From the NCBI RefSeq assembly GCF_001462395.1, contig NZ_LNTB01000001.1, positions 1,260,001 through 1,292,000 on the forward strand: DNA of 32,000 bases. Direction: 5' to 3'. The notes beneath the pieces were generated by a model. It saw only the letters and a list, made by a program, of their open reading frames with translations, was not told the DNA's origin and searched no databases. Shown here piece after piece: positions 9,847 through 31,941 of the stretch (position 1 is the stretch's first letter; every line of letters starts with the position of its first letter). Source of the DNA: Pyrodictium occultum. Lineage in GTDB: Archaea > Thermoproteota > Thermoprotei_A > Sulfolobales > Pyrodictiaceae. A program made the position numbers and the translations under genes.

Positions 9847-9932
9847 TCCAAGGGCATCACCCAGCCCAGCCTCTAGCTGCGATACAATAGGCGGTCCCCT
9901 CTGCCTCGATTTTATGCTTCATGTCGCGCCAT

Positions 9933-9961
9933 GTTCCCACCGGGGTGGGAACGGTATAAAG
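9933..9961 (+). promoter_or_regulatory. Promoter of the DAHP synthase-aroB-aroD operon: TATA box (TATAAA, 9955-9960) directly preceded by a 9+2+9 perfect palindrome
   Basis: GTTCCCACC-gg-GGTGGGAAC (9933-9952) is followed by ggTATAAAg. An SD-like GAGGTG at 10013-10018 lies 9 nt before the ATG at 10028. Confidence 0.55.
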
Positions 9962-10027
9962 TTCTTTCGCGCGCCCGGGGACACGGGGCCAGAGCCCCCG
10001 GAGAGCTGGAGAGAGGTGGAACCACTC

Positions 10028-13125: not shown

Positions 13126-13215
13126 TCCCTCCCAGCCTCCCGCGCGCCCACCTCGGTGGGGGAGCCCTGTTAATACCGGCAGCCCCCGGGGCCGGAGGGG
13201 CTGGGTACGGTCTGG

Positions 13216-14592: not shown

Positions 14593-14593
14593 G

Positions 14594-14601
14594 CTTTAAT
14601 A
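14594..14601 (+). promoter_or_regulatory. TATA box (CTTTAATA) of the trp operon
   Basis: It lies immediately after the lpd stop (14590-14592). The first in-frame ATG of trpA is at 14649, about 50 nt downstream. Confidence 0.55.
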
Positions 14602-14648
14602 GTGGGAGCCCCGTGGGCCTGCCAGGCCTGGACCCTGATCCCTGGGCG

Positions 14649-15437: not shown

Positions 15438-15439
15438 CC

Positions 15440-16735
15440 GTGGTGCCCAGGTACTGGTACAACATTGTGGCGGATCTCCCGGAGCCGCTGCCGCCCCTCA
15501 TCGACCCGCTCGACGACGAGGAGTCGAGGATAGCGCTGCTGGTGAGGATACTCCCCTCCAGGCTGATAGACGAGGAGTACACGCTGAGCAGGCTCATCCC
15601 GATACCAGAGAGGATACGCGAGGCCTACGCCAGGGCGGGGAGGCCTACCCCGCTGCTCCGCGCCGAGGGGCTGGAGAGGGCGCTGGGCGTGAGCGGGAGG
15701 GTGAGGATCTACTACAAGTACGAGGGCGCCCTGCCCACGGGGAGCCATAAGCTGAACACGGCGCTACCCCAGGTCTACTACGCGCTCCTGGACGGAGCGG
15801 AGGAGGTGGCCACCGAGACGGGGGCGGGCCAGTGGGGCCTCGCGGTCGCCACAGCGGCGGCCATGCTGGGTGTCAAGGCGACGGTGTTCATGACTAGGAG
15901 CAGCTACGAGCGGAAGAAGCCCAGGAGGCTCGCAATGCAGGCCATGGGCGCCACGGTGTACCCCAGCCCCAGCAGGGTCACCGAGGCTGGGAGGAGGGCG
16001 CTGGAGGAGAGGCCCGACCACCCCGGTAGCCTGGGCCTCGCCATAACGGAGGCTATAGAGTACGTGCTTGGGAACCCCAAGCGCCGCTACGTAGCCGGCT
16101 CAGTCATGGAGAGCGTCGTTACCCACCAGACGGTGATAGGCCAGGAGGTTCTCCAGCAGCTGCCGGAGGAGCCGGACTACATGGTAGCCTGCGTCGGCGG
16201 AGGCAGCAACCTGGCCGGGTTCACCTACCCCGCTATAGGGATGAGGCTCCGCGGCGAGGGCTTCGAGAAGACCCGCTTCGTGGCGGCTGAGTCGGCGGCA
16301 GCCCCCCGGCTGACGAAGGGGAGCTACAGGTACGACGGCCTAGACACCGGCCTGGTCCTCCCCCTGGCGAGGATGTACAGCCTCGGCAAGGACTACGTGC
16401 CGCCCCCGATACACGCTGCCGGGCTCCGCTACCACGGGGCCGCCGCGAGCCTCTCGCTGCTGCGCAGGCTCGGTCTGGTGGAGGCCGTGGCCTACGGCCA
16501 GGAGGAGGTGTTCGAGGCGGCCCGGATCTTCGCCCGCTCCGAGGCCCTGCTCCCGGCGCCGGAGAGCGCCCACGCGATAAGGGCTGTGATCGACATCGCC
16601 CGCCGCGCGCCCAAGGGCACGGTGATAGCTTTCAACCTCAGCGGCCACGGGCTCATGGATATCGACGCCTACGAGACTCTCTCCTCCAGGATAGTCGAGG
16701 GCAGGCTCCCCGAGCCCACGGGGACCAGGAGGTGA
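15440..16735 (+). CDS. trpB: Tryptophan synthase beta chain, TrpB2 type
   Basis: 431 aa with a GTG start 2 nt after the trpA stop. It has the TrpB2-type N-terminus (PRYWYNIVADLPEPLPP), the PLP lysine context (LPTGSHKLNTAL), and GGGSNLAG. The length is that of TrpB2 rather than TrpB1. Confidence 0.9.
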   Translation: MVPRYWYNIVADLPEPLPPLIDPLDDEESRIALLVRILPSRLIDEEYTLSRLIPIPERIREAYARAGRPTPLLRAEGLERALGVSGRVRIYYKYEGALPTGSHKLNTALPQVYYALLDGAEEVATETGAGQWGLAVATAAAMLGVKATVFMTRSSYERKKPRRLAMQAMGATVYPSPSRVTEAGRRALEERPDHPGSLGLAITEAIEYVLGNPKRRYVAGSVMESVVTHQTVIGQEVLQQLPEEPDYMVACVGGGSNLAGFTYPAIGMRLRGEGFEKTRFVAAESAAAPRLTKGSYRYDGLDTGLVLPLARMYSLGKDYVPPPIHAAGLRYHGAAASLSLLRRLGLVEAVAYGQEEVFEAARIFARSEALLPAPESAHAIRAVIDIARRAPKGTVIAFNLSGHGLMDIDAYETLSSRIVEGRLPEPTGTRR

Positions 16736-17772
16736 CCGCGGCTGTGGCCGACCTCCCCAGGCTGCTGGAGGACCTGCTCTCCGGCCGCGGCATGGGCTTC
16801 GAGGAGGCCAGGAGCGTCGCCCTAGAGATGCTCCGGGGCGGCCTGGACGACGTGGCTATAGCGGCGATACTGGTCGCCCTGAGGGCCAAGGGCGAGACAG
16901 CGGAGACGGTGGCGGGCTTCTCGGCAGCGCTGCGCGAGACCTGCGTGAAGGTGCCCGCCGGGGGCCTGGAGCCGATAGACACCGCCGGCACCGGCGGAGA
17001 CGGGGCCCACACGCTCAACGCCTCCACCGCGGCCGCGATAGTCGCCGCTAGCCTGGGCGCCAGGGTGGCCAAGCACGGTAACCGCGGCGTGAGCAGCAGG
17101 AGCGGGAGCGCCGACTTCATGGAGGCCCTGGGCTACCGGATCGACCACGGCCCCGCCGAGGCCGCCTGCATGCTCAGCCGCGCCGGCTTCGCCTTCCTCT
17201 ACGCGCCCCGCTACCACCCGGCAATGAAGAGGGTGATGCCGGTCCGCAGGAGGCTCGGGATAAGGACGGTCTTCAACCTTGTGGGCCCCCTCTCCAACCC
17301 CGCCGGGGTGCGCCGCCAGGTGCTCGGCGTCGCGAGGCCCGAGCTGCTCGAGGTCATGGCGGGGGCGGCCCGGCTGCTGGGCTACGAGAGGCTCCTCCTG
17401 GTCCACGGCGAGCCAGGGATAGACGAGGTCAGCGTCTCCGGCAGGACCACCGTCTACGAGATCCGGGGCGGCAGGGTGGAGGAGTACAGCATAGAGCCCG
17501 AGGACCTGGGGCTCGGCCGCCACCGGCTGGCGGACCTCCGGGTGGAGGCGCCCGGGGAGAGCGTGGAGCGCTTCCTAGCCGTGGCCCGCGGCGCCGGGAG
17601 GAGGCAGGACCGCGACTTCATAGCAGCCAACGCGGCCGCGGCAATCTACGCTGCAGGGCTGGCGGGGAGCCTCAGGGACGCCGCCGAGCAGGCCCTCCAG
17701 GCCCTCGGGGACGGCACAGTGGCGGCCTACCTTGAGAGGCTCGTGGAGGCCTGCAGGGCTTGCTGCGGCTAA
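16732..17772 (+). CDS. trpD: Anthranilate phosphoribosyltransferase
   Basis: The GTG start overlaps the trpB stop (GTGA). Motifs seen: DTAGTGGDGAHTLNASTAAAIVAASLG, KHGNRGVSSRSGSADFMEALG. Confidence 0.93.
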   Translation: MTAAVADLPRLLEDLLSGRGMGFEEARSVALEMLRGGLDDVAIAAILVALRAKGETAETVAGFSAALRETCVKVPAGGLEPIDTAGTGGDGAHTLNASTAAAIVAASLGARVAKHGNRGVSSRSGSADFMEALGYRIDHGPAEAACMLSRAGFAFLYAPRYHPAMKRVMPVRRRLGIRTVFNLVGPLSNPAGVRRQVLGVARPELLEVMAGAARLLGYERLLLVHGEPGIDEVSVSGRTTVYEIRGGRVEEYSIEPEDLGLGRHRLADLRVEAPGESVERFLAVARGAGRRQDRDFIAANAAAAIYAAGLAGSLRDAAEQALQALGDGTVAAYLERLVEACRACCG

Positions 17773-18416
17773 AGATCTGCGGGCTCACCCGGCCAGAGGA
17801 CGTGGAGGCGCTCGACGGCGCCGCCGACTACCTGGGCTTCGTGGTCGCCCCGTCGAGGCTGAGCCCCCGCGTGCTGAGCCCCGGGGAGGCCAGGAGCCTG
17901 GCCGAGACCGTGTCTAGGAGCCGCCCCGTCCTGGTGGCGGCCGGCTATGGGCCCCGCGACGCAGTGGAGCTGGCGGCGAGGCTCGAGGCGTTCAGGGTGC
18001 TCCAGTACCACGAGCCCGCGGGCCCCGAGGTGCTCGCCGGCCTGGCCAGGGAGCTGGGCTCGATAGGAGTCTCCCTGGCCCCCGTCTCCCTCTGGGACGG
18101 CAGGAGGCTGAGCCCAGACCCCTGCGAGGCGGCGACCGTGGCGCCGGGGCACGAGTACCTCCTAGTGGACGCCGTCAAGGGGCTGGGCCTCCGCTACGCC
18201 GGGGGCCTGAGGGCGCCCCTCGAGGCGTACCTCCGGGCGGCAGTGTGCAGCAGCCGCGCGGCAGCCGCCGGCGGGGTGGTGCCGGAGAACGCCTGCCTCG
18301 TCGCCTCCACCGGGGTCTCGATGCTCGACGTGAGCAGCGGCGTCGAGGCCGAGCCGGGCCGCAAGGACCTCTCCAGGGTGGAGAAGCTGCTGGAGGTGCT
18401 GCGCTCATGCAGCTAG
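17760..18416 (+). CDS. trpF: Phosphoribosylanthranilate isomerase
   Basis: TTG start with a 13-nt overlap with trpD. The LKICGLTRPEDV N-terminus and the ~218-aa length fit TrpF. Confidence 0.85.
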   Translation: MLRLKICGLTRPEDVEALDGAADYLGFVVAPSRLSPRVLSPGEARSLAETVSRSRPVLVAAGYGPRDAVELAARLEAFRVLQYHEPAGPEVLAGLARELGSIGVSLAPVSLWDGRRLSPDPCEAATVAPGHEYLLVDAVKGLGLRYAGGLRAPLEAYLRAAVCSSRAAAAGGVVPENACLVASTGVSMLDVSSGVEAEPGRKDLSRVEKLLEVLRSCS

Positions 18417-19699
18417 ACTGGGCCGGGTGCCGCCGCGTCCCCCTCCCAAGCGCCCCGGAGCCCCGCCGGCTGGCGGTGTGGGCGGAGGAGCGCTACGGCT
18501 ATGTCGCGCTGCTCGAGAGCGGCGCGGGGCCGGGGGAGAAGGCCCGCTACACCCTGGTGGCCTACGGGGCCCGCCGGGTGGTGGAGGGCAGCCCCCTGGA
18601 GGCCTACGCCAGGCTCCGCGAGGCAGCCGCGGGCAGGGGCTGCGCCAGCATCCCCTGCAGGAGCATGCTCTTCGGCGTGGTCGGCTACGAGGCGGTGGCC
18701 GGGGCGGAGCCCTGGCTGGCCCCGATGCTGGGCCGCCACGAGTGGCCGGCGCTCCTAGTCTTCGAGCCCGAGACCCTCGTGGTCTACGACCACGCCAGGG
18801 GCCACGCCACGCTCTGCCCCGGGGACGCCGAGGCCGGGGAGAAGCCTCTCGGCGGCTGGAGCCCGGCCAGGGGCCCCGTGGAGGAGACGCCCCGCAGGCT
18901 CTTCGAGCAGTGGGTGGCAGAGGCCAGGGAGATGCTTGAGAGGGGCGAGTTCCTACAAGTAGTGCTCTCGAGATTCGAGCGCTACGAGTACCAGGGCGAG
19001 CCGCTGGCGCTCTACGCCAGGCTGGCGGACCGGAACCCCTCCCCCTACATGTTCTACATGAGGCTGGGGGAGAGGTGGATAGCCGGCTCCAGCCCCGAGC
19101 TGCTCGTCAGGATGGACGGGGGGAGGCTGGAGACGCACCCTATAGCCGGGACCCGGCCCCGCGGCAGGACGCCGGAGGAGGACCTGGCCCTCGAGGAGGA
19201 GCTGCTGGGCGACGAGAAGGAGAGGGCGGAGCACCTCATGCTCGTCGACCTCGCCAGGAACGACCTGGGCCGGGTAGCGTTGCCCGGCACGGTGAGAGTG
19301 ACGAGGCTCATGGACGTGGAGAAGTACAGCGCGGTCCAGCATATCGTGAGCAGGGTGGAGGCTGTGGCCCGGCCCGGGCTGGGCTACGCCGACGTCCTGG
19401 CAGCGGTCAACCCCGCCGGCACGGTGTCCGGCGCCCCGAAGCCGAGGGCAATGGAGACCATAGCTAGGCTCGAGGACAGGCCCCGCGGCCCCTACGCCGG
19501 CGCCGTCGGGGTCTACTCGGACCAGGCGGGCGAGACAGCCATAGTGATAAGGAGCGTCTGGAGCATAGACGACTCCACGCTGGAGACTAGGGCGGGCGCG
19601 GGGATAGTCTACGACTCCAGGCCCGAGAGAGAGTACATGGAGACCGTACACAAGCTTGCCGCGATCCACCGGGCCCTGGGAGCCGGCGGCGGGAGGTGA
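18407..19699 (+). CDS. trpE: Anthranilate synthase component I
   Basis: The ATG at 18407 overlaps the trpF end by 10 nt. Motifs seen: NPSPYMFYM, SSPELLV, HPIAGTRPRG, EHLMLVDLARNDLGRV, PAGTVSGAPK, RGPYAGAVG. The track start at 18245 is an Arg/Gly-rich artefact. Confidence 0.93.
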   Translation: MQLDWAGCRRVPLPSAPEPRRLAVWAEERYGYVALLESGAGPGEKARYTLVAYGARRVVEGSPLEAYARLREAAAGRGCASIPCRSMLFGVVGYEAVAGAEPWLAPMLGRHEWPALLVFEPETLVVYDHARGHATLCPGDAEAGEKPLGGWSPARGPVEETPRRLFEQWVAEAREMLERGEFLQVVLSRFERYEYQGEPLALYARLADRNPSPYMFYMRLGERWIAGSSPELLVRMDGGRLETHPIAGTRPRGRTPEEDLALEEELLGDEKERAEHLMLVDLARNDLGRVALPGTVRVTRLMDVEKYSAVQHIVSRVEAVARPGLGYADVLAAVNPAGTVSGAPKPRAMETIARLEDRPRGPYAGAVGVYSDQAGETAIVIRSVWSIDDSTLETRAGAGIVYDSRPEREYMETVHKLAAIHRALGAGGGR

Positions 19700-19705
19700 G
19701 CAGGA

Positions 19706-20296
19706 ACGGCCTACGACACCCTAGTCCTCATAATAGACAACTACGACAGCTTCGTCTACAACCTGGTGAACGTGCTCGCGGAGCTCGGGGCCAGGAGCAT
19801 AGTCGTGAGGAACGACGAGATAACCGTGTCGGGGATAGAGAGGATAAACCCGGACAGGATAATAGTCTCGCCGGGCCCCGGCAGCCCCCTCTCCGCCCGC
19901 GATGTAGGCGTGTCCGTGGAGGCCGTGAAGAGGCTCGGCCCCAGGATCCCGGTGCTAGGCGTCTGCCTAGGCCACCAGGTGGTGGGCGTAGCCTACGGCG
20001 CCAAGGTGAGGCGCGCCCGGAGGATAATGCACGGGAAGACGGACGAGATAGAGCACTACGGCGGCAGCCTCTACCGCGGGGTGCCCAGGGTGTTCACCGC
20101 CGCCAGGTACCACAGCCTCGTGCTGGACGAGATCCCCCCAGTGCTGGAGGTCACGGCAAGGAGCAGGAGCGACGGCGAGGTAATGGGGGTCCGGCACCGG
20201 GAGCACCCAGTCCACGGGGTCCAGTTCCACCCGGAGAGCATAGCAACCCCCCACGGCCCCAGGCTGCTCCGCAACTTCCTCGACGACCCGTGGTAG
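19706..20296 (+). CDS. trpG: Anthranilate synthase component II (glutamine amidotransferase); the start codon is anomalous
   Basis: GVCLGHQ (catalytic Cys) and FHPES are present. The conserved N-terminal strand LVLIIDNYDSFVYNL is encoded at 19721-19765, upstream of the first canonical start (GTG 19766). The only plausible initiator is ACG at 19706, 6 nt after a perfect GGAGGTGA. See findings. Confidence 0.8.
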   Translation, partial: TAYDTLVLIIDNYDSFVYNLVNVLAELGARSIVVRNDEITVSGIERINPDRIIVSPGPGSPLSARDVGVSVEAVKRLGPRIPVLGVCLGHQVVGVAYGAKVRRARRIMHGKTDEIEHYGGSLYRGVPRVFTAARYHSLVLDEIPPVLEVTARSRSDGEVMGVRHREHPVHGVQFHPESIATPHGPRLLRNFLDDPW

Positions 20297-20330
20297 AGGC
20301 GCCGGTGCAGGGAAGGAGGCAGGGGCGGCC

Positions 20331-21107
20331 TTGGGGGAGGGGCGTCCTGGAGGCTTCCTGGGGGAGGCTCTCGGGAGGAGCCTGGAGCGCTCCAGGCTGC
20401 TGGGCTCTCCACCGCGGCCCGGCAGCCTCCGCGGCGCGGTGGAGAAGGCCCTCTCCGAGGGGAGGCCCGGGCTGCTGATAGAGTACAAGCGGTGCAGCCC
20501 CGGGGGCTTCGTGGCCTGGCGCACCCCCTGGGAGTACCTGGAGGCCACGCTAAGCGTGGCAGACGCCTACTCGGTGCTGGTGGAGCCCTACTGGTTCTGC
20601 GGCAGCCCCGAGCTGGTGGCCTTCTTCGCCCGCCACCGCCCCGTGCTGGCTAAGGACTTCGCCTCCACCGCCGAGCAGCTCCAGCTGTACCGCCGCCACG
20701 GGGCCTCGGCGGCCCTCCTGATACTGGACATGCTGGGGTGGAGGCGGCTGGACGCGCTCTACCAGGAGGCGAGGAGCCTCGGCCTGGAAGCCCTAATAGA
20801 GACCACGAGCGCGGGCCCGGCGGTGGAGGCGATGAATAGCTACCCCGAGGCCCTGGTGGGGATAAACGCGAGGAACCTGGAGACGCTGGAGGTCAGCTAC
20901 CGGAGGCTCCTAGAGGAGATCGCCCGGGCCGCCGAGAGGAAGCCGAGCAGGGCTCTCCTAGTGGCGGAGAGCAGCATAGACAGCCCCGGGAAGGCCCTGG
21001 AGCTCGCCCGGGCGGGCGCTGACGCGCTCCTCATAGGCACATGGGCCATGAAGAGCCCAGGGGGGCTGGCGGGGCTCCGGGATAGGCTCCGGGGCTCCAG
21101 GAGCTAG
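20331..21107 (+). CDS. trpC: Indole-3-glycerol phosphate synthase
   Basis: TTG start. Motifs seen: LLIEYKRCSPGG (the E-x-K-x-x-SPS-like motif), LVGINARNLETLEV, LVAESSI. Confidence 0.87.
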   Translation: MGEGRPGGFLGEALGRSLERSRLLGSPPRPGSLRGAVEKALSEGRPGLLIEYKRCSPGGFVAWRTPWEYLEATLSVADAYSVLVEPYWFCGSPELVAFFARHRPVLAKDFASTAEQLQLYRRHGASAALLILDMLGWRRLDALYQEARSLGLEALIETTSAGPAVEAMNSYPEALVGINARNLETLEVSYRRLLEEIARAAERKPSRALLVAESSIDSPGKALELARAGADALLIGTWAMKSPGGLAGLRDRLRGSRS

Positions 21108-22330
21108 GGCTTCTTTAGGAGTATCAGCCTGTTAGCCTTCCCCTCCTTAACTATCCTTATGTACCCCATCGCTGCGAGCCTCCGGACGTGCCTCCAGAGC
21201 GTGGTCTTCGGAATCCCGGTCTCCCGGAGCAGCTGGCTCTGGAGCACAGAGCCCCCATGCTCCTCCAGCTTACTGAGGATAAGCAGGTCCACCTCATCCA
21301 GGCCTGTGGATGATATGGGGGCCGCGGCGTTAGAGGGGACGCCGCCCCCGCCGCCAAAAACTCCCCCACGGCGGGCGAGAGCCAGGCCGGCAGCCACGGC
21401 TACCACCAGCACAGCTGCAACTCCTCCTATCAGCGCGGTGCTGGGCCCCTTAGAGCCAGCGGCGGGCGGTGGGCTCGAAGGCCTCCCGGTGGTTGTCGCC
21501 GGCCTCATGGTTGTGGAGAGCCGCGTGGTCGCTAGAGCAGTCGACGTAGTTGCAGGGGCTACGGGCGCTGCCGGGGTAGTGGTGCTTGTTGCAGTTGCCG
21601 TCCTAGCTGTCGTGCTGGCTGTTGTGGTACTCGTGGCTTTAGTCGCCCTTGTTACACTTGTTCTTGTTGTTGTAGTTGTGCCTCCAGGCTTAGCAGCAGC
21701 CTTGGTAGTAGTAGTGGTAGTAGTGAAGGTGGTAGCGGTAGTCTTTGAAGTCTTTGACGCGGGGGTACTTGTAGTCGCAGCGGCCCCGGTCTTAGTCTTT
21801 GCCGTGGCGGTCGGCGGCGTCTGGGGCGCGAGCACGTACCGGATGGTGGCGGGGCCCCTCAGGTACAGCACCACCGTGTTGTTCACTGTTGTGGCGTTCA
21901 CCAGGCCCTCGGGGAGGCTGAGCAGCACTACGCCCGGGCTGACCCTCAGCTCCACCAGGCCGGTGTAGTTCACCAGGAACTGGAGCACACCATTCTGCTC
22001 GGTGACGTTGCCCAGGTAGTCTATGTACACGCTCCCCCTCCCCGAGGCGGCCACGTAGATCTTGCCGCCGCTGTAGATAGCGGAGACGAGGCTCCCGCCG
22101 AGCCTAGCCTCTATCGTGGCGGGTATCGCTGGTACCGGGGCAGGGTACTCGTTCATCCCCGGCTCCGCGGTGCCCCATATCTCCACCACGACGGTCCCGT
22201 CGTCCCGTATAGTGACCACTGGCGTCTTGGAGAGCTCCGCGTGCGCGGCGGCGGAGAAGGCGAGCAGCAGCATGGCCGCCGGCAGCGCTATGCAGAGCAA
22301 CACCCGGCTCATCGCTTCTCCTCCCTCCAT
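21104..22330 (-). CDS. Membrane-tethered winged-helix protein: signal peptide, ~135-aa beta-rich ectodomain, ~130-aa Thr-rich stalk, one TM helix, C-terminal cytoplasmic wHTH
   Basis: Signal peptide MSRVLLCIALPAAMLLLAFSAAAHA|E. The Thr/Ala/Pro-rich low-complexity region spans aa ~169-297 (21440-21826). The TM helix ALIGGVAAVLVVAVAAGLALA is followed by RRGG. The C-terminal DLLILSKLEEHGGSVLQSQLLRETGIPKTTLWRHVRRLAAMGYIRIVKEGKANRLIL has a MarR/TrmB-like wHTH pattern. The start is 22330 or the Met at 22312. Confidence 0.8.
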   Translation of the reverse strand: MEGGEAMSRVLLCIALPAAMLLLAFSAAAHAELSKTPVVTIRDDGTVVVEIWGTAEPGMNEYPAPVPAIPATIEARLGGSLVSAIYSGGKIYVAASGRGSVYIDYLGNVTEQNGVLQFLVNYTGLVELRVSPGVVLLSLPEGLVNATTVNNTVVLYLRGPATIRYVLAPQTPPTATAKTKTGAAATTSTPASKTSKTTATTFTTTTTTTKAAAKPGGTTTTTRTSVTRATKATSTTTASTTARTATATSTTTPAAPVAPATTSTALATTRLSTTMRPATTTGRPSSPPPAAGSKGPSTALIGGVAAVLVVAVAAGLALARRGGVFGGGGGVPSNAAAPISSTGLDEVDLLILSKLEEHGGSVLQSQLLRETGIPKTTLWRHVRRLAAMGYIRIVKEGKANRLILLKKP

Positions 22331-22413: not shown

Positions 22414-22432
22414 GGAACAACTGGTTTGTTCC
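22414..22432. promoter_or_regulatory. Inverted repeat GGAACAA-ctggt-TTGTTCC in the divergent intergenic region (candidate operator)
   Basis: Perfect 7-bp arms with a 5-nt spacer, located between the wHTH gene (start 22330/22312) and the coiled-coil gene (ATG 22529). A degenerate copy, GGGACAAC-AG-TTTCCC, follows at 22442-22457. Confidence 0.35.
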
Positions 22433-22528
22433 ACCGCTTACGGGACAACAGTTTCCCGCACACGTTCCAGCATCCCCCTTATGAGGACCCGAGGACACCA
22501 GGGGACCCAGGCGGACAGGGTGAGGCGG

Positions 22529-24685
22529 ATGCAGGCACGCGCCCATAGAACCGGGCTCCTAGGAGCAGCCGCGCTGAGCGTACTGGCCCTACTGCTAGCA
22601 GCCACTCTATCACCGCTGCTAGCCCCGGTCGCCCTGGCGGAGAACGGCCCAGCAGGAAACAACACCAATACCACTACAACCAATACCACTAATAGTAACG
22701 TGGCTGCAACGGCAAGCACCAGCGGCAACACCACGGCAGCCGCTACGAACACCACCGCCGGCGCGCAGCTTAGCCCCGGCGCGGTGCGCGCCCTGCTGCT
22801 AGCCTACAGCGCTATGATACGCAGCACCCTGGCCAGGATGGGCCTGCTCAACGCCACCCCTGCAGAGATAGCGGCCGCCCTGAACGTCTCGCTAGAGACC
22901 GCTGAGACGCTGAAGGAGGCGCTCAACCTGCCCAGAACCCTCGGCAACATGACCAGTCAGCAGGCCGCTGAGCTGCTCCAGAAGGTGGCCTCAGCCTACC
23001 GGGCGCTGGCCAAGAAGATGGTGGAGGCCAACCTCCACGCGGCCGAAGAGGCTAGGGAGAGGATACAGAGGCAGATGCAGCGACACCTACTGCTACGCAT
23101 ATCCCATACCGTGGAGCAGCTCGCGAGGCAGCTCAACGACACCCAGCTCGCTGCCCTGGCCCAGCAGCTCCGCAGCATGGCGCTCAGTGGCAACTACACC
23201 CGGGAGAACTTAACCAGTATAATGTCGAGCGTGGTGGCCCGGATAGAGGCGGCGAAGATATTCATGATGGCCACCACTATAGACAACGCCACCATAGCGC
23301 AGCTGGTCGAGGCAGCCGAGGCTGGCAATGCCACGAGCCTCCAGGATTACCTGGCCAGGCTCAACAAGAGCTTCGCCAAATCCCTCCACCTAGTGAAGAC
23401 GCTGTCGAAGAGGCTGCGCGCAGCCAACGAGACAGAAGTCGGTGAAGCCCTTGAGGAGGCCCTCGAGAGGCTCGAGGATGCCAACGAGACGGTGGGCCAT
23501 GTAGCGCTGGCGGCTAGCATAGCGGCAGGCGGCAACGCCACCGCAAACGCTACCGCTGTTATAAAGGGTGCGGTTGCCGCAGCCTTCCAGGCCAGGATAG
23601 AGAAGCTCGAGACAAAGATAAGCATACTCATGGAGGAGGCCAGCCTCCTAGAGAACGCTACCAACAACACCATTGTGCAGGAGCTGGTGAAGGCAGCTAA
23701 GGACGCGTTGGCGAAGGCATCACGCCTCATAAACGAGTCCAGGGCGGCGCTCGAGAAGGGCGAGATACCTATAGCGGCAAAGGACCTGGGGATGGCGTCC
23801 AGCCTCGTGGCCAAGGCGGGCATCTACCTGGCAAGGGCCAACATAGCCATAGCGCTCGGTGGCCGCCTCCACGGCCACCTGGGCGTCGGCAAGCAGGGCC
23901 CGGCCAAGCACGCTGCCCCGCCAGGCCTCTCCAAGGCGCTGGAGAGGCTGCAGAGGGCAGTGCAGGAGAGGATAGCGGAGGCGAGTAGGGCTATAAACAA
24001 GACCATGGAGGCCGTCCAGGGGATAAACAACACCAAGATAAAGGAGAAGGCTATGGAGAAGCTGGAGGAGGCAAGAGAGAAGCTGGAAGAGGCCATAGAC
24101 CTGGCCAAGGAAGCCCAGGAGAAGCTGGCGGAGGGCAGCACGGCTGCCGCCTTCCAGCTCTACCAGAAGGCCCTGGTAAAGATAGGGCAGGCTCTCAATG
24201 ATGTCAGAGTAGCCTCGTGGCTAGCCAGCCTCGGCAAGGGCTTCCGGCCGCCGATACCCCGCCTCCCTCACGAGCATGAGAAGCACGGCGGCTGGATAAA
24301 GCCCGGCGAGGCGAATGTGACCGGCAACATAACCGAGGATATCGACGAGCTGCTCGGCGAGGCCAAGGAGCTGGGCCAGGAGCTAGCCCAGCTCCGGAAC
24401 GAGACCAGCGCCAACCCGGCAGCCGCCGCCCTGGTCCACAGGGCCTCTTCGATGCTCCAGAGCGCTGTAGCGCTCCTGCTACAGGCTAAGGAGCTGGCTA
24501 AGAAGGGGCAGACACAGCCGGCCAAGGCCCTCATAAACGTAGCTAAGAACATGCTGGAGAAGGTTGAGCACACACTGAAGATGCTCGAGGAGAAGCTGAA
24601 GCATGGCGAGCATGGGGGCGGCGGGCAGAGGGGCCACGGCGAGCATGGCGAGCATGGAGGCCGCGGCAGGGGCGGCCACGGGTAA
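22529..24685 (+). CDS. Secreted, heavily sequon-decorated alpha-helical coiled-coil protein with a C-terminal His/Gly-rich tail
   Basis: The ATG at 22529 is preceded by GGTGA. Signal peptide MQARAHRTGLLGAAALSVLALLLAATLSPLLAPVALA|EN, then an Asn/Thr-rich block, then ~650 aa of Ala/Leu/Glu/Lys-rich heptad-like sequence. I counted 26 N-x-S/T sequons by eye. There is no C-terminal TM helix. The tail reads KHGEHGGGGQRGHGEHGEHGGRGRGGHG. An alternative ATG is at 22481. Confidence 0.8.
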   Translation: MQARAHRTGLLGAAALSVLALLLAATLSPLLAPVALAENGPAGNNTNTTTTNTTNSNVAATASTSGNTTAAATNTTAGAQLSPGAVRALLLAYSAMIRSTLARMGLLNATPAEIAAALNVSLETAETLKEALNLPRTLGNMTSQQAAELLQKVASAYRALAKKMVEANLHAAEEARERIQRQMQRHLLLRISHTVEQLARQLNDTQLAALAQQLRSMALSGNYTRENLTSIMSSVVARIEAAKIFMMATTIDNATIAQLVEAAEAGNATSLQDYLARLNKSFAKSLHLVKTLSKRLRAANETEVGEALEEALERLEDANETVGHVALAASIAAGGNATANATAVIKGAVAAAFQARIEKLETKISILMEEASLLENATNNTIVQELVKAAKDALAKASRLINESRAALEKGEIPIAAKDLGMASSLVAKAGIYLARANIAIALGGRLHGHLGVGKQGPAKHAAPPGLSKALERLQRAVQERIAEASRAINKTMEAVQGINNTKIKEKAMEKLEEAREKLEEAIDLAKEAQEKLAEGSTAAAFQLYQKALVKIGQALNDVRVASWLASLGKGFRPPIPRLPHEHEKHGGWIKPGEANVTGNITEDIDELLGEAKELGQELAQLRNETSANPAAAALVHRASSMLQSAVALLLQAKELAKKGQTQPAKALINVAKNMLEKVEHTLKMLEEKLKHGEHGGGGQRGHGEHGEHGGRGRGGHG

Positions 24686-24732: not shown

Positions 24733-24742
24733 TTTTTCCCTC
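24733..24742 (+). terminator. Oligo-T terminator candidate (TTTTTCCCTC)
   Basis: A T5 run lies 48 nt after the stop at 24685. It is the same 10-mer as at 3123-3132. Confidence 0.5.
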
Positions 24743-24847: not shown

Positions 24848-25699
24848 TTGAGGCGCTGTAGCCCCTCGACCAGGCTCTACGGGCTTATAGGCAGCCCAGT
24901 CTCCCATAGCCTGAGCCCCGCCATACACTGCGAGGTCTACCGCCGAGCGGGTGTAGACGCTGTCTACCTGGCCTGGGAGACTCCGCTGGAGAGGCTGGAG
25001 GAGAGGCTGGAGGCGCTGAGAAGCCTCGCCCACGGCTTCAACGTAACCACACCCCTCAAGGAGGCCGTCCTCAGCCTCCTCGACCGCGTGGAGGCCGAGG
25101 CCGCGGAGATAGGGGCCGTGAACACGGTGAGGAACGAGGACGGGGAGCTAGTAGGCTACAACACCGACTACCTCGGCGTGGCCGAGTGCCTCAGGGGCAG
25201 CCGGCCGCGAGTAGCACTGGTCATAGGCGCGGGTGGCGCGGCTAGGGCAGCCGTCTATGCGCTCTACCGGCTAGGCGCGGAGAAGGTCTACATAGCTAAC
25301 AGGGGGGCAGAGAGGGCTAGGAGGCTCGCAGGGTGGGCCGGCCGCCTCGGCCTAGACGCCACCCCCACCCCCCTGGAGGAGGCGGCGGTGCCCGCAGCCC
25401 ACGCGGACACAGTGGTGAACGCAACCCCGCTGGGCAGCCTGGCCTGCTGCCCTGACCAGGCCCCGCCCGTGCTGGAGGGGCTCCGCGAGGGCCAGCTAGT
25501 CTTCGACATGGTTTACCGGCCTCTGGAGACCCGGCTGCTCCGGGCGGCGAGGGAGCGCGGGGCCAGGACCGTTGACGGGCTCTGCATGCTCGTCTGGCAG
25601 GCCCTCCACGCGGACAGAATATGGCTAGGCATAGAGCCCACCCGGGAGCTCTACGAGACAGCCAGAAAGGCCGCGCTGGAGGCGCTGGCGAGCAGCTAG
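24848..25699 (+). CDS. aroE: Shikimate 5-dehydrogenase
   Basis: TTG start. Motifs seen: LYGLIGSPVSHSLSPAIH, GFNVTTPLKEAV, GAVNTV, YNTDYLG, VIGAGGAARA. Confidence 0.9.
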   Translation: MRRCSPSTRLYGLIGSPVSHSLSPAIHCEVYRRAGVDAVYLAWETPLERLEERLEALRSLAHGFNVTTPLKEAVLSLLDRVEAEAAEIGAVNTVRNEDGELVGYNTDYLGVAECLRGSRPRVALVIGAGGAARAAVYALYRLGAEKVYIANRGAERARRLAGWAGRLGLDATPTPLEEAAVPAAHADTVVNATPLGSLACCPDQAPPVLEGLREGQLVFDMVYRPLETRLLRAARERGARTVDGLCMLVWQALHADRIWLGIEPTRELYETARKAALEALASS

Positions 25700-25974
25700 A
25701 CCGGGAGGAGCATCACCCTCTCCACTCCCCGGATCCTCCTCAGCTCCTCCATGAGGGGCCTCAGCTCAGTGGCCGATGCAGCAGCCACGGCTATATTGAT
25801 GCAGTGCTTCTCGTCGAGAAGCTGGTGGTGGAACGATCGGACCAGGTGAAGGTAGCGGTGGATCACCCCTATCACTCTGCGCTCGGCTGAAGTCTCCTCG
25901 TGGCATACAACGGTTGCTATTATCCATGCCCTCTTCCCCTCGAGGCTATTAGATGCCTCAAACTGTTCTATCAT
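25696..25974 (-). CDS. nikR: NikR C-terminal metal-binding (ACT-like) domain, lacking its DNA-binding domain as annotated
   Basis: [12 protein letters not shown]...[54 protein letters not shown] aligns by eye with E. coli NikR residues ~55-130 (...HVHINHDDCLEIAVLKG...GVRHG). Confidence 0.65.
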
Positions 25975-26193: not shown

Positions 26194-28115
26194 ATGGTGT
26201 TTTGTAGCCCTGCAGTGATGAGTGGTGTGAAGTGCTGTGGATTCCTGCATGACGGTTGGTGGCTGGCGCTGCTTATCCTCGGGCTTCTAGTACTATCGCT
26301 CAGCCTGCTAGGGCTAGACCAGCTGGCCTGGTTCATCCTTGCAGCGGTTGCAGCTGGATTGTTGGCAAGGTTCACTGTCATGTTGGCAAGGGGCAGGGTT
26401 ACTGTAGACCTCTTGATGGGGCTCTCCGTCCTAGTGATGTTGAAATACGGTCTTACCTCTGAGGCAGCGCTTGTGGCCACGCTGTACGCTGCGTCGGAGA
26501 TACTGGAGGATGCTGCGGAGGAGGCTGCAGAGAGGAGGCTTACGAGCCTCCGGGAGCTTCTGCCGCGCACCGCCCTGGTCCGCCGCGGCAACGTAGAGAA
26601 GGTTCACATTGACGAGGTGAAGCCTGGCGACGTGATCATAGTCCCGCATGGGGGCATGGTGCCTCTCGACTCCATGCTGCTAAGCGAGGAGGCGGTTTTT
26701 GATACATCTATGGTCACCGGGGAGCACGAGCCGAGGAGGCTGACGAGAGGCGACCCGGTAGAGAGCGGCTACATGAATATAGGCGGTATGGCTGTGGGGG
26801 TCAGGGCTGTAAAGCCTGCTAGGGAGAGTGCAATCCAGCTACTGGTGCGCGAGGCCCTGGAGACGCTGGAGAAGAAGACGAGGCACCAGCGCCTCATAGA
26901 GCGCATCGCCCCCTGGTACATAGGCCTGCTCCTAGCCTCCTACGCGGCTGCATCAGCAATACTTGGCCCGGAGAGAAGCCTAGTCTTCCTCCTGGCTGGC
27001 TGCCCGAGCGCCTACATAGTGGTGTCGAGCTACACCTACATGCTAGTCCTGGGCCAGCTGGCACGTCGAGGCGTGGTGGTGAGGAGCCCCAGAGCCTCGA
27101 GAACGCCTCCCGGGCCAGGACGGTTGTGCTAGACAAGACCGGCACAATCACCCTCGGCAGCCTTCGCGTGGCTCGCATACACTATGAGGGCCGGGATCCA
27201 GCCGGGAGACGATACGCCTCATAGCCTCGGCTGCAAGGGCCAGCCTCCACCCCGCAGCCGAGGCGGTGGCTAGGCTGAGCAATGAGATTGCAGAGGTGGA
27301 GGAGGTCAACGAGATCCCTGGCAAGGGCGTGGTAGCCAGGGTTGAGGGGCATCTAGTGGTCCTGGGTAGTAGGAGCCTTGTCGAGGAGCACGCCGGCGGC
27401 CTGCCGCCCGGCAACCCTTGCGAAGGGCCCGTAGTCTATGCTGCAGTGGACGGCGCCTACGTGGCCTCGTTCTGCCTGGAAGAAGAGCTGGACCCCGGGG
27501 CAGAGCGGGTGGTGGAGACGCTGAAAAACATGGGGCTTAGAGTCGTGGTTGCCAGCGGCGACTCGAGCTCATCGGTGAGAATGATCGCCGAGAGGCTCGG
27601 CATAGACTACTACGGGGGCCTACGGCCTCATGAGAAGAAGAGGCTGGTTGAAAATCTCCGGCGGGAGGGCCCTGTCCTAGTAGCCGGGGACGGGGTCAAC
27701 GACATCCCCATGCTAGCCGCCAGCGATGTCGGCGTCGCCATGGCGCGTATAGCGCTGGTGGCTAGAAGCGCCGACGCTGTATCCACCCGGGGGGCTCCGG
27801 GGCCTGCCAGACCTGCTCCGCGGATCCAGGACTTATCTGGCCTCCCTCTACACTGGGCTTGCAGCCGCCACGCTGCTAAAGCTGGCAGTAATTGTGGCGG
27901 GCTTAGCGGGCGTCATCTCCCTCCCCCCAGTGCTAGTCCTCGGCGATGATGGGGTCACACTCGTTGCCGCGGCCTCTGTCAGCCTCGCCGCGGGCTTTGC
28001 CTGGAGGAAGGGAGGAAGGCTAAGCTCGCTGCTGGGAAGGCTAGGGAGCCGCCCGCTAGGTAATACTAGTAATACCACAAGACAACGGGAAGAGTATGTC
28101 CGCAACAATTTATAA
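26194..28115 (+). pseudogene. P1B-type (heavy-metal) P-type ATPase without an N-terminal metal-binding domain, interrupted by three frameshifts
   Basis: Frame 1 (26194-~27087) carries TGE (MVTGEHEP) and a CPS motif in the TM helix (LLAGCPSAYIV). Frame 2 (~27090-27206) carries VVLDKTGTITLG. Frame 3 (~27206-27790) carries an HP motif (ASLHPAAEAV) and VAGDGVNDIPMLAASDVGVAMA. Frame 4 (~27792-28115) carries GLRGLPDLLRGSRTYL plus the final TM helices. The frame switches fall at a C4 run (27087-27090), a G3 run (27204-27206) and a G6 run (27789-27794). Confidence 0.8.
28108..28115 (+). promoter_or_regulatory. TATA box (ATTTATAA) for the 28131/28140 gene; the transcript is likely leaderless
   Basis: This consensus-like TATA overlaps the ATPase stop codon. 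ATG codons at 28131 and 28140 lie 23-32 nt downstream, which is about where transcription would be expected to start. Confidence 0.55.
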
Positions 28116-28139
28116 TCAAGCGTTAGCAGTATGGTCAGT

Positions 28140-28731
<592 letters not shown>

Positions 28732-29299: not shown

Positions 29300-29350
29300 A
29301 TATTTTCTTGATAATTAAGGTAATTAATATAAGTAATTTTATTAATGTTC
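29300..29350 (+). promoter_or_regulatory. AT-rich promoter of the molybdopterin oxidoreductase operon, with reiterated TAATTAA-like elements
   Basis: gaTAATTAAggTAATTAAtataagTAATTTTATTAAtg is a striking AT island in a high-GC genome. GGTGG at 29386-29390 lies 7 nt before the TTG at 29398. Confidence 0.5.
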
Positions 29351-29397
29351 AACCATGTACAGGTATTGGTGGAACACTGGACCAGGGTGGGTATCGG

Positions 29398-31941
29398 TTG
29401 AGGATAACGCGCCGCGAGGCGCTCAAACTCGCCGCCGTCGCTGCAGCTTCTTCAGCGCTCCCACTCTCTATCCCGAGAAGGAGGCTTCCCCGGGCGAGAG
29501 CCGGCAGCTCTGCAGCACCGACCTCGATACGCGTGGCCAACACTGCCTGCATTATCTGCGGGCAGAGGTGCCCCATCAGGATATACGTGGCAGAGGTGGG
29601 TGGCGAGCAGGTAGTAGCGAAGGTCGTGTACAACACCGACCCTGAGTACGACCGGTACTTCGCAGCCTGCGGCAGGCCCCAGGCCATCCCGGAGCTGCGC
29701 TTCCTGCCCCAGCGCATCCGTAGGCCCCTACTCCGTGTAGGAGCAAGGGGCGAGGGCAGGTTTAGGGAGATAAGCTGGGAGGAGGCCCTCAACATACTCG
29801 CCGAGAAGCTGAAGAAGTACCTCGATGAGCCATGGCGCATCGTGGTGCTCAGCCACCAGGGCTTTGAAGGCGGCCTGGTACGCTCATTCTTCGAGAGCGT
29901 GCTGGGCACCCCGAACACTACCCAGCACTGCGACACCTGCCATACCGGCTGCGATATAGGCCGTAAACCCATCTTCGGCGCCTATAAGGGCCCCTCGGCC
30001 TTCATGCCGGACTATGCCAATGCTAAGCTCGCCGTCTTCATGGGCCGCAACCCGGCCGGGGGCATAGTGGCCTCGGCGTGGACCAAGATGTTCACCGAGG
30101 GCCGCGCCAACAAGATGAAGCTGGTGGTGTTCGATGTCCGTGAGAGCCGTCTGACCGAGCTAGCCGACGAGTACTACATAATACCCCCGGGCACCGACCT
30201 CGCGGTGAGCCTCGCCCTGCTCAACATCATACTCAGCGAGAGGCTCTACAACAAGGACTACCTTGTCAAGTGGACTAACGCTCCAATGCTGGTCTACGCG
30301 GACACCATGGAGCCCGTGAAGCTCGCCCCTAACCCGCTGATGAAGGGCAAGAAGACCTACCTAGTCTACGACGAGGCTGACGGGAAGTTCAGGCTGAAGA
30401 CTGAGGCCCTGAGCCCAGCCCTGGAGTACGAGGGCACCTACCAGGGCCGCCCCGTTAAGACCGTGCTCCTAGCCATACGCGACGCCGTCAAGAACTATAC
30501 GCCCGAGTGGGCCGAGAAGATAACTGGCGTCCCGGCCAACGCTATACGCAGGCTAGCCCACGAGCTCGCCGATGCAGCGCCCAAGGCCTTCATAGACCAC
30601 GGCTACAAGGGTACCCGCTACTACAACGAGGGCATGCTGAACAGGGTGAATATGCTCATAAACATAATGCTCGGCAGCCTAGGGGCGAAGGGCGGCATAG
30701 CCTACCCGGCTGGGAAGCCCCACTTCAAGTCCCCAATAGACATACTGGGCATAGCCAAGACGAAGCCAAGGGGCACCTCGATACCGGGGTACTGGGCCAG
30801 CCAGGGCGTGGAGAACATCCGCCCTGGCTGCTGGAGCATGCTCGTGGCAAGGTCGATTATCGAGGGCAAGCCGTATCCGATAGGCGTGCTCTTCATACAC
30901 CTAGAGAACTTCGTAAGCCACGTCCTAGGGGGCCGTAAGCTGGCTGAAGCGCTTAAGGACGAGAACCGCGTGGAGTTCATAGTAGTACTCGACACAGTGT
31001 TCAACGAGACAACGATGTATGCAGACCTGGTGCTGCCGGTACCATTCTTCTTCGAGTACGAGCCGATAACGCTAAACTATGCTAAGAAGAGCTATGTAAG
31101 CGTAGTGGTGGACCCGCAGAAGGCCCTGGACCCGCCGAGAGGCGTGGACGCTAGGCCCACCTGGTGGATACTTGTAGAGATTGCGAAGAGGCTCGGCAAG
31201 CTGCCCCCCGGTGCCTCGGTGGACCCCATAGCAGTCAAGAGGAAGCAGGCTGAGGAGGCTGGCATAAACTATGCCGAGCTGAGGAGGAAAGGCTACGCCC
31301 TGCTCTGGACCAAGCCCAAATACCACCCCTGGGGCGGCAAGCCGCTCCCCACAACCACGGGCGAGCTCGAGCTGGTGAACGTAGAGTGGCTTGCCAAGTA
31401 CAGGAGCTACATAGGTAAGGAGTCGCCGCTCAACCCGCTGCCCTGCTGGGTACCGCCCCTCTGGATGAGGAAGGGCGGCCTTGCCGATAACGAGTTCGTG
31501 GTGGTCGAGTTCCAGGATCCGTTGACAGCGATAAACAACTTCATGAGGTTCGCCAGACTGGTGAGTGACTCGCTCAAGTGGGGGAGGCTCTACGGCGTCC
31601 AGATGCACCCCTCAAGGGCCAGGAGGCTCGGGCTCAGGGATGGCGACCTGGTGAGGCTGGTGGGCCCCAACGGTGAGGTAACAGCTAGGGTCATAGTCAC
31701 CGAGAAGGTGCACCCCATGGTTCTAGCAGCACCCCATGCCACAGCTCTTGACGAAAGGGTTGTACCCAATAAGGTTGTGGTTGAGACTTCCAGCGGCACT
31801 CTCACGGTCAAGCTATTCGGAGACGGTGGAGGCTATGGCGTGAACAACAACTTCCTGGGAGACCCCATGGTGAGCGTTGTGCCTGAGGAGGGCTACAGGG
31901 CCGCCCAGCACGATTTTGTTGTGAGGGTTGAGAAGCTCTAG
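29398..31941 (+). CDS. Tat-exported molybdopterin (bis-MGD) oxidoreductase catalytic subunit, DMSO-reductase superfamily (Psr/Phs/Ttr/Arr-like)
   Basis: The TTG at 29398 gives the twin-arginine signal MRITRREALKLAAVAAASSALPLS. An N-terminal 4Fe-4S motif (CIICGQRCPI...AACGRP, C-x2-C-x3-C...C) is present. Size is ~850 aa. A downstream gene begins MARMAMVIDLNR. The track start at 29308 lies inside the AT-rich promoter. Confidence 0.85.
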   Translation: MRITRREALKLAAVAAASSALPLSIPRRRLPRARAGSSAAPTSIRVANTACIICGQRCPIRIYVAEVGGEQVVAKVVYNTDPEYDRYFAACGRPQAIPELRFLPQRIRRPLLRVGARGEGRFREISWEEALNILAEKLKKYLDEPWRIVVLSHQGFEGGLVRSFFESVLGTPNTTQHCDTCHTGCDIGRKPIFGAYKGPSAFMPDYANAKLAVFMGRNPAGGIVASAWTKMFTEGRANKMKLVVFDVRESRLTELADEYYIIPPGTDLAVSLALLNIILSERLYNKDYLVKWTNAPMLVYADTMEPVKLAPNPLMKGKKTYLVYDEADGKFRLKTEALSPALEYEGTYQGRPVKTVLLAIRDAVKNYTPEWAEKITGVPANAIRRLAHELADAAPKAFIDHGYKGTRYYNEGMLNRVNMLINIMLGSLGAKGGIAYPAGKPHFKSPIDILGIAKTKPRGTSIPGYWASQGVENIRPGCWSMLVARSIIEGKPYPIGVLFIHLENFVSHVLGGRKLAEALKDENRVEFIVVLDTVFNETTMYADLVLPVPFFFEYEPITLNYAKKSYVSVVVDPQKALDPPRGVDARPTWWILVEIAKRLGKLPPGASVDPIAVKRKQAEEAGINYAELRRKGYALLWTKPKYHPWGGKPLPTTTGELELVNVEWLAKYRSYIGKESPLNPLPCWVPPLWMRKGGLADNEFVVVEFQDPLTAINNFMRFARLVSDSLKWGRLYGVQMHPSRARRLGLRDGDLVRLVGPNGEVTARVIVTEKVHPMVLAAPHATALDERVVPNKVVVETSSGTLTVKLFGDGGGYGVNNNFLGDPMVSVVPEEGYRAAQHDFVVRVEKL

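Follow-up and report, generated by a model that had tools for sequence, protein, structure and literature searches.

An all-alpha protein with export features from Pyrodictium occultum, encoded beside a membrane-anchored winged-helix partner, suggests an undescribed cell-envelope module

The gene CF15_06805 lies in a 32,000-nucleotide (nt) stretch of Pyrodictium occultum DNA (contig NZ_LNTB01000001.1, positions 1,260,001 to 1,292,000; here called the window, with coordinates counted from its first letter), and its product had been described, in an original prediction made from the DNA letters alone, as a secreted coiled-coil protein. We found that the protein has export features, an excess of N-glycosylation sequons, an almost wholly helical fold class, and a family of homologues, that its gene is paired with a neighboring gene for a membrane-anchored winged-helix protein (the partner), and that conserved cis elements precede it. 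Together, the two proteins suggest a cell-envelope module that has not been described. Our reading, to which we give about an even chance, is that CF15_06805 is an exported, N-glycosylated, nonenzymatic all-alpha protein docked on the ectodomain of the partner and transcriptionally coupled to it. The observation behind the original prediction was confirmed and its interpretation was partly supported, while the analogy with a rod or stalk was rejected.

Little is known about how the broad pseudo-periplasm in Pyrodictium and related organisms is filled and organized, or by what means archaea that lack two-component systems inform the genome of the condition of their envelope. An orphan "hypothetical coiled-coil protein" here becomes a member of a definable family, one with a genetic partner, a candidate operator, and a model as a chain of helical bundles, and the analysis corrects a tempting but wrong analogy with tetrabrachion. 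It also provides hypotheses on anchoring without a transmembrane segment and on membrane-tethered control of transcription at 100°C. Since neither Pfam nor NCBIfam has a model for the family, a profile could improve the annotation of many thermophile genomes.

Export features and sequon excess

The protein was identical in sequence to the NCBI entry "hypothetical protein CF15_06805 [Pyrodictium occultum]," and the gene order around it was the same in an independent read assembly. The sole segment with a KD19 hydrophobicity above 1.6 comprised residues 7 to 38 and ended in VALA|EN; the profile showed no segment past residue 38 and, hence, no C-terminal transmembrane helix. Because residues 7 to 38 are the only hydrophobic segment, the Sec-type signal peptide and the lack of a membrane anchor that had been claimed for the protein both fit. 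Equivalent A-x-A-like signal ends occurred in the homologues, and the signal peptide is presumably cleaved. The 26 N-x-S/T sequons reported earlier were all found, compared with 4.4 ± 1.9 in 2,000 composition shuffles (maximum, 13), and 26 of the 39 Asn residues lay within sequons. The protein contained 0 Cys residues. The predicted Asn/Thr-rich block was present at residues 43 to 77, and the Asn/Thr/Ala-rich segment that contains it was very variable in length among homologues, with about 200 amino acids (aa) in P0003.

Predicted fold

We modeled CF15_06805 as an AlphaFold2 monomer with an 11-sequence family alignment and obtained a mean predicted local distance difference test (pLDDT) score of 73; 526 residues scored at least 70. 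Residues 1 to 79 were disordered, and residues 83 to 693 were 86% helix, divided among 18 helices of 7 to 60 aa with turns of 2 to 7 residues, in agreement with the claim of an almost entirely alpha-helical protein. Three disordered stretches of the model corresponded to the C-terminal tail and to the two Pro/Gly/His-containing breaks that had been read from the sequence, which appeared as low-confidence stretches at residues 446 to 463 and 572 to 595. The folded part thus resolves into a core and two three-helix bundles (Table 1). The core, of about 350 to 360 aa, carries the family signature YSxMxRxxLxxLGLLxATPxxVAxAL and also NDTxL..LAQQLR, and homologues have Pro-rich linkers at the place of the linker at residues 446 to 466. 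The first bundle, in which the turn motif LAEGSTAAAFQL fits the family motif LxxGNxxxAxxL, gave a local Foldseek match to designed three-helix bundles (TM-score, about 0.58); the second gave a weak FAT-domain-like match in the PDB sequence search and a match below the threshold to a SbsC spectrin-like Pfam entry. Observations made apart from the model were in accord with it: a turn motif, LxxG(N/D)xxxA, was kept across the family with its Gly/Asn conserved, and 15 of the 21 sequons in the folded region were within 3 residues of a turn, versus a background of 32% (p = 2.5e-4).

These features bear on the coiled-coil character of the protein. In a crude heptad-register scan of our own, 12% of windows scored above the 99th percentile of shuffles, a 12-fold enrichment, so that heptad periodicity was present as a pattern, but in-phase runs reached only 28 to 40 aa, and each coincided with a single helix. 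The dominant hydrophobic period in 56-aa windows was mostly 3.65 to 3.8 and not 3.5. The longest stretch without Pro or Gly was 81 aa, the longest predicted helix was 60 aa (about 9 nm), and self-BLAST revealed no internal sequence repeats. A Foldseek search of the model against PDB and BFVD returned nothing at E <= 0.001; the top entries were bundle arrays of vinculin, catenin, and talin and designed three-helix bundles, none of them significant. The vinculin, alpha-catenin, and talin rods, as well as the SbsC spectrin-like repeats, are likewise built of linker-joined antiparallel bundles of 3 to 5 helices. This is a likeness of fold class only (E = 4e-3; TM-score, about 0.1), the eukaryotic proteins are cytoplasmic, and common ancestry is unsupported. 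From the model, we infer that CF15_06805 is a jointed series of antiparallel helical bundles; the predicted helix lengths would make it a flexible protein no longer than a few tens of nanometers.

A family in hyperthermophilic archaea

Searches of CF15_06805 against Pfam, NCBIfam, PADLOC, PHROGs, and PDB sequences yielded no family above the threshold. The homologues were also checked for an enzymatic domain that would explain the sequence, and the family searches found none in them or in CF15_06805. Word-index homology searches returned CF15_06805 alone, one spurious match to the core profile, and nothing for the partner ectodomain; low-complexity words probably swamped the candidates. The family came to light when 1.84 billion representatives were searched exhaustively with phmmer, which gave 10 real relatives. 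The closest was ABM80015 of Hyperthermus butylicus, annotated as "putative coiled-coil protein" (38% identity; E = 1e-79), and the others included its paralogue ABM80902, a fragment from a Pyrodictium sp. metagenome-assembled genome (MAG), and metagenomic proteins of 600 to 1300 aa. All homologues shared the signal peptide, high sequon counts, and a core of about 350 aa. Past the core, the number of helical modules of about 100 aa differed, and by gain and loss of such modules the members range from 300 to 1300 aa. An 11-member profile matched CF15_06805 at 9e-113, and the iterated profile retrieved 54 open reading frames (ORFs). Judged from these sequences, the family is confined to hyperthermophilic archaea (Hyperthermus, Pyrodictium, and uncultured vent and hot-spring relatives). 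Exact look-up of the metagenomic members gave only MAG proteins without a given name, and we found nothing on CF15_06805 in the literature on DUF7343, Hyperthermus coiled-coil proteins, and Pyrodictium surface layers (S-layers), nor any description of the pair.

Two observations concern the surroundings and the architecture of single members. In L022 (1545-4827), ABM80015 directly follows two genes with class-III (type IV pilin-like) signals, one for a protein of 156 aa and one for a sequon-rich protein of 953 aa. In L093 (8860-11652) and L091 (946-3726), members of about 930 aa have a helical part followed, at the C terminus, by three beta-rich repeats, each of about 80 aa (e.g., IPPNYVFDRWEAIGDIEI), and the family therefore can fuse to nonhelical surface domains.

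The C-terminal tails of the family were disordered and lineage specific. The tail of CF15_06805, KHGEHGGGGQRGHGEHGEHGGRGRGGHG, has 6 His and 14 Gly residues in 28 aa, and it is encoded by a tandem duplication with a 42-nt unit (24600-24681; 2 copies, 87% match). Of the earlier description of this tail as a tandem, the Gly/His composition and the duplication stood, with 42 nt as the unit; the 9-mer GGCGAGCAT was repeated only 2.2 times inside the duplication. Gly/His/acidic tails ended about 11 of the 40 complete family members; such tails were seen in P0005, P0012, L027, L028, L049 (with GGEHGEEGEHG), L055, and L083, while other members had Pro/Lys-rich tails ending in KP or purely acidic tails.

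Pairing with a membrane-anchored winged-helix protein

The winged helix-turn-helix (wHTH) domain of the partner matched HTH_24, MarR_2, and DUF7343 above the cutoffs, resembled the N-terminal domain of Lrp/AsnC, and was modeled with a pLDDT above 90. With a DNA-binding domain and a transmembrane helix in one polypeptide, the partner counts as a transmembrane transcription regulator; in layout it is a type-I membrane protein. Such regulators are reported to be enriched in Thermoproteota (PMC10269533). A homologue of its ectodomain adjoined a family member in L004, L017, L019, L021 (the locus of the H. butylicus paralogue ABM80902), L023, L024, and L025. A metagenome scan was then seeded with the partner alignment, and core genes were sought with the iterated core profile. 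Among the 80 loci obtained, 38 had a core-family gene directly adjacent to the partner gene; in 31 of them it came next downstream in the same orientation, and in 7 it was divergent. In L042, L044, and L045, the core gene stood beside a second partner copy that had only the ectodomain and the transmembrane helix. In total, 45 distinct loci were paired, and genes of the helical family nearly always stand next to a partner gene. Anchoring through another protein, which had been offered as an alternative to metal-mediated anchoring, is supported by this adjacency of a membrane-anchored partner. A genome scan based on aroE revealed few syntenic loci, with no copy of the pair on the short contigs L002, L003, and L005; the linkage of the pair to aroE was kept in L004, L017, and L023.

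Partner variants that keep the ectodomain, the stalk, and the transmembrane helix and have no wHTH still adjoined the helical gene in L024, L042, L044, and L045, although in L024 a wHTH copy may lie past the contig end. The ectodomain is therefore the probable functional link to the helical protein. Identity was highest in the wHTH domain (50 to 70%), lower in the ectodomain (30 to 47%), and lowest in the helical core (12 to 31%). In a mirror-tree comparison, core and ectodomain correlated (r = 0.89) no more strongly than core and wHTH did, so this analysis shows co-inheritance only.

The wHTH-less paralogues (L024 4347-5291, L042 8831-9748, L044 2268-2996, and L045 to L048) have a beta ectodomain and a Thr/Pro stalk and end in a C-terminal transmembrane helix with an RKR/KRR tail. 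In L042, L044, and L045, such a copy is flanked by a full-length wHTH partner on one side and by the helical gene on the other. Additionally, low-GC hot-spring partner loci (L052 1515-2972, L053, L057, L058, L078, and L082; L061 to L068) had different secreted neighbors, either a 485-aa protein with 27 sequons encoded after the partner or a divergent protein of about 735 aa with 13 sequons. Neither was detectably related to the helical family, and for the 485-aa, Sulfolobales-type, sequon-rich neighbor the hhalign probability to the CF15_06805 family was 0.3%. Since these neighbors seem unrelated to the helical proteins, secreted glycoproteins of several kinds may pair with the partner family.

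Conserved elements between the divergent genes

In the 7 divergent loci, 13 copies of GGAACA/TGTTCC were counted in 1438 nt of intergenic DNA, compared with 0.28 per kb in the flanks, which is a 32-fold enrichment (Poisson 9e-16). The element CCTTAT[G/C]AGAACC was located about 50 nt upstream of the start of the helical gene in 7/7 of these loci, and GGTGAGG or AGGTGA preceded the starts of the homologues as it does that of CF15_06805.

Proposed mechanism and comparison with known systems

In the mechanism that we infer, CF15_06805, which has no anchor of its own, would be held in the pseudo-periplasm or at the cell surface by physical docking onto the partner ectodomain. The winged helix of the partner would bind the GGAACA/TGTTCC repeats between the divergent promoters, and expression of the pair would in this way follow the condition of the envelope. 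Lineage-specific additions would account for how many C-terminal modules a member has and for whether its tail is Gly/His/acidic or Pro/Lys-rich, and the HGEHG tail of P. occultum could bind cations, perhaps metal ions, or surfaces. A further-reaching version, which we regard as a speculative and rather unlikely extension, is an archaeal device for envelope-to-genome signaling in which a glycosylated pseudo-periplasmic scaffold is docked on a membrane-tethered transcription factor and changes in the envelope alter both the contact and transcription. Metal load at the Gly/His tail, attachment to the S-layer or to cannulae, or heat damage would change the contact, and transcription at the GGAACA divergent promoter would change in turn, perhaps because intramembrane proteolysis sets the winged helix free. 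If true, the pair would be the first one-component system of the envelope-stress type to be defined in hyperthermophilic Thermoproteota.

Several known systems resemble the pair in part. The SlaA/SlaB proteins of Sulfolobales are likewise encoded by adjacent genes for an anchorless secreted glycoprotein and a membrane-anchored partner, which holds SlaA off the membrane. SlaA is immunoglobulin-like and beta-rich and SlaB carries a coiled coil, as is generally held and as a 2026 preprint describes, whereas here the secreted protein is all-alpha. The partner also differs from SlaB: a Thr-rich stalk carries its small beta ectodomain, and it usually has a DNA-binding domain in the cytoplasm, to which SlaB has no counterpart. 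Thus, where the SlaB-type layout has a beta-sandwich, a coiled coil, a C-terminal transmembrane helix, and a SlaA-like neighbor, CF15_06805 is all-alpha without a transmembrane helix and has a neighbor composed of ectodomain, transmembrane helix, and wHTH; PDB sequence searches detected no SlaA or SlaB homology for the pair. In the ToxR/ToxS, CpxA/CpxP, and ZraS/ZraP systems, a membrane transducer is encoded beside, and often divergently from, a secreted helical accessory, and CF15_06805 lies next to a membrane regulator as CpxP, Spy, and ZraP do, which makes the analogy a functional one only. These systems are bacterial, and the accessories ToxS, CpxP, and ZraP are unglycosylated proteins of about 100 to 170 aa, compared with 718 aa for CF15_06805. 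ToxR, in which the winged helix is N-terminal and the periplasmic domain C-terminal, has a topology opposite to that of the partner. Pfam searches gave no LTXXQ or Metal_resist match for CF15_06805 even at E <= 0.1, and family searches gave no family-level match to ToxR/ToxS, CpxA/CpxP, or ZraS/ZraP. By analogy, the pair would work like SlaA/SlaB and like these bacterial pairs, and by the tests for membership it belongs to none of their families.

ArnR has an N-terminal HTH domain, C-terminal transmembrane helices, and no exported ectodomain, and its target is archaellin. The partner, with its exported ectodomain, is set apart by this description. What it has in common with ArnR and ArnR1 of Sulfolobus acidocaldarius is that these transcription factors of a crenarchaeon are bound to the membrane and that their genes lie next to the surface-structure gene under their control (cited generally in PMC10269533).

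Points against docking and coupling, and other explanations

A number of points weigh against the reading of CF15_06805 as a protein docked on, and coupled to, its partner. The closest relative, ABM80015 (L022), and the distant P0012 (L020) had no partner nearby, and 40 of the 80 partner loci had no detectable core-family neighbor, some of them carrying a different sequon-rich secreted protein instead. A signal peptide left uncleaved would give CF15_06805 an N-terminal anchor of its own, and the Gly/His tail was missing from its closest homologues. The GGAACA motif was defined post hoc, from the very loci on which it was tested, was not found upstream of the co-directional operons of more distant taxa, and could be bound by a factor other than the partner. 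The models also have limits: that of the partner, made from a single sequence, is reliable only for the transmembrane helix and the wHTH, with a low-confidence ectodomain, and an AlphaFold2 monomer built from a shallow alignment can fold back true oligomeric coiled coils. The heptad scan used our own scoring and not Marcoil or DeepCoil.

If fully helical, CF15_06805 had been expected to form a rod on the order of 100 nm, comparable to tetrabrachion, the S-layer protein of Staphylothermus marinus. Both proteins are extracellular, N-glycosylated, and helix-rich and come from hyperthermophiles of the same order-level group. Tetrabrachion is an uninterrupted four-stranded parallel coiled coil of about 70 nm with beta-rich arms and a C-terminal transmembrane anchor, whereas CF15_06805 has hairpin bundles, no beta domain, and no anchor. 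A long parallel coiled-coil stalk of the tetrabrachion or SlaB type, serving as an S-layer spacer and anchored by its His tail, would suit the export features, glycosylation sites, and helix content of the protein, its source in a Desulfurococcales-type hyperthermophile with a wide pseudo-periplasm, and the enrichment of short heptad-like segments over shuffles. Helices of 60 aa or less, in-phase heptad runs of 40 aa or less, the turns, and the Foldseek results leave such a 100-nm rod unsupported. The chain is broken by conserved Gly/Asn turns and Pro-rich linkers, the sequons are located at turns, the C-terminal transmembrane helix and the beta-rich lattice domain are both missing, and the lengths of the family members change by whole modules. 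Among solved structures there was no tie to tetrabrachion or SlaB; tetrabrachion was absent from the PDB sequence searches at E <= 1 and from the Foldseek matches listed (50 of 100; E <= 10). The S-layer subunit of P. occultum, presumably far larger than about 75 kDa, also counts against the rod, which we consider very improbable. Even less credible, and in effect already refuted by the data, is a cytoplasmic coiled-coil protein of the SMC or EzrA kind or a spurious ORF in GC-rich DNA; weak subthreshold Pfam matches to coiled-coil families would agree with it, but all homologues have the N-terminal signal, sequons are in 6-fold excess, about 45 homologous genes show conserved synteny, and the gene has a TATA-like box and a Shine-Dalgarno-like element.

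The two remaining alternatives keep the protein outside the cytoplasm, and we regard each of them as unlikely, although well ahead of the rod. CF15_06805 could be a periplasmic metal-binding or chaperone-type signaling accessory like ZraP or CpxP, with a tail and linkers that bind metal or unfolded envelope proteins and with an effect on the regulator but no structural role. The termini of ZraP are rich in Gly and His and its gene is divergent from zraSR, and CF15_06805 is similarly divergent from a membrane-bound regulator across a shared operator-like region, is all-alpha and extracytoplasmic, and has a His-rich tail and linkers, with Gly/His/acidic tails recurring in the family. However, it is 5 to 10 times larger than CpxP, Spy, or ZraP and has none of their Pfam matches, its tail is missing in the nearest homologues and replaced by Pro/Lys tails in positional orthologues, and partner variants without a DNA-binding domain still accompany the helical gene. 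The nearby heavy-metal ATPase gene, described below, is frameshifted and missing from the syntenic loci that retain aroE. Alternatively, CF15_06805 could be an independent surface-matrix or adhesion protein, forming no complex with a neighbor that is only its transcription factor and that responds, through its ectodomain, to an unrelated signal. Regulation alone could account for the adjacency, no partner accompanies two of the family members, and the position of ABM80015 after two pilin-like genes hints at a surface-structure context. The adjacency of variants that have the ectodomain and transmembrane helix and lack the winged helix speaks against this explanation, as does the retention of the pair, both divergent and as an operon, over a large evolutionary distance, with core identity down to 12 to 20%.

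Sequence features and neighboring genes

The coordinates of the features of CF15_06805 and its partner are given in Table 1. The original prediction had also noticed a lower GC content than in the flanking genes. This held true, with 62.8% for CF15_06805 (third codon positions [GC3], 78%) compared with 69 to 72% for the flanking trp and aro genes (GC3, 84 to 92%); the partner gene had 63.7%. The genome average of P. occultum is 63.4% (PMC4767911), so that CF15_06805 is typical of its genome and the biosynthetic flanks are above average. Horizontal acquisition, considered on the basis of GC content, was rejected because the gene matches this average, and the lower value is thus no sign of foreign origin.

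Table 1. Features of CF15_06805, its upstream region, and the partner gene in the window
Feature	Position	Residues	Strand	Remarks
Partner gene	21104-22330		-	408 aa; signal peptide, all-beta ectodomain of ~130 aa, Thr-rich linker of ~130 aa, transmembrane helix 299-319, Gly-rich spacer, winged helix 346-404
Candidate operator, inverted repeat GGAACAAC-TGG-TTTGTTCC	22414-22432		.	Between the two divergent promoters
TATA-like element CCCTTATGAGGACC	22476-22489		+	~50 nt upstream of ATG
Shine-Dalgarno-like element GGTGAGG	22519-22525		+	Read from sequence; 3 nt ahead of ATG
Coding sequence, predicted secreted helical glycoprotein CF15_06805	22529-24685		+	718 aa plus stop
Predicted Sec-type signal peptide	22529-22642	1-38	+	Basic n-region, hydrophobic core, c-region SPLLAPVALA|E
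Disordered Asn/Thr/Ala-rich segment	22643-22774	39-82	+	5 sequons; pLDDT < 40
Conserved family core, multi-helix bundle	22775-23863	83-445 (to ~450)	+	12 helices of 7-60 aa; AlphaFold2, alignment
Disordered Gly/His/Pro linker RLHGHLGVGKQGPAKHAAPPG	23864-23926	446-466	+	pLDDT < 50
First three-helix bundle	23927-24241	467-571	+	Helices 467-497, 502-534, 538-571; AlphaFold2
Disordered Pro/His linker FRPPIPRLPHEHEKHGGWIKPG	24242-24307	572-593 (about to 595)	+	AlphaFold2
Second three-helix bundle	24308-24607	594-693	+	Helices 594-625, 630-658, 662-693; AlphaFold2
Disordered Gly/His tail KHGEHGGGGQRGHG|EHGEHGGRGRGGHG	24599-24682	691-718	+	14-aa tandem duplication, 42-nt repeat
Oligo-T run, possible archaeal terminator	24733-24737		+	48 nt past stop; read from sequence

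The pair sits between genes of aromatic amino acid biosynthesis and aroE. The aromatic genes (3180-21107 and 24848-25699) include those for GHMP-type shikimate kinase, EPSP synthase, chorismate synthase, transketolase, and DHQ synthase, as well as trpD, trpE, and trpC, and they are interspersed with unrelated ORFs, such as one for a Pyr_redox_2 oxidoreductase (13216-14592).

Downstream, a 92-aa protein that consists of the NikR C-terminal domain only, without the ribbon-helix-helix domain (NikR_C; 25696-25974), is divergent from a P1B-type heavy-metal (Cd/Zn-like) P-type ATPase (26194-27949), and the GC content around the two genes falls to 56%. The ATPase is split into two ORFs with the DKTGT motif (VVLDKTGTITLG) in a third frame between them, giving two frameshifts within about 150 nt around this motif; the gene has probably become a pseudogene, unless the split stems from a sequencing error. 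Both the NikR_C and the ATPase genes were missing from the loci that retain aroE (L004, L017, and L023). A link of CF15_06805 to these two genes was considered and judged unlikely on both grounds, and because of the frameshifts and the absences they lend no support to a role in metal handling.

Two further ORFs were noticed in the window. At its 5' end, an ORF of more than 1030 aa (1-3103, plus strand) runs off the window; it has 5 sequons and Gly/Ala/Pro-rich repeats near the C terminus, and it matched no Pfam family. At 28131-28676 on the plus strand, a helical ORF of 181 aa, assigned to no family, has a Gly-rich end (GGSGGGGGPAGI) and lies upstream of the gene for a PhsA-like molybdopterin oxidoreductase of the thiosulfate/polysulfide reductase type (29308-31941).

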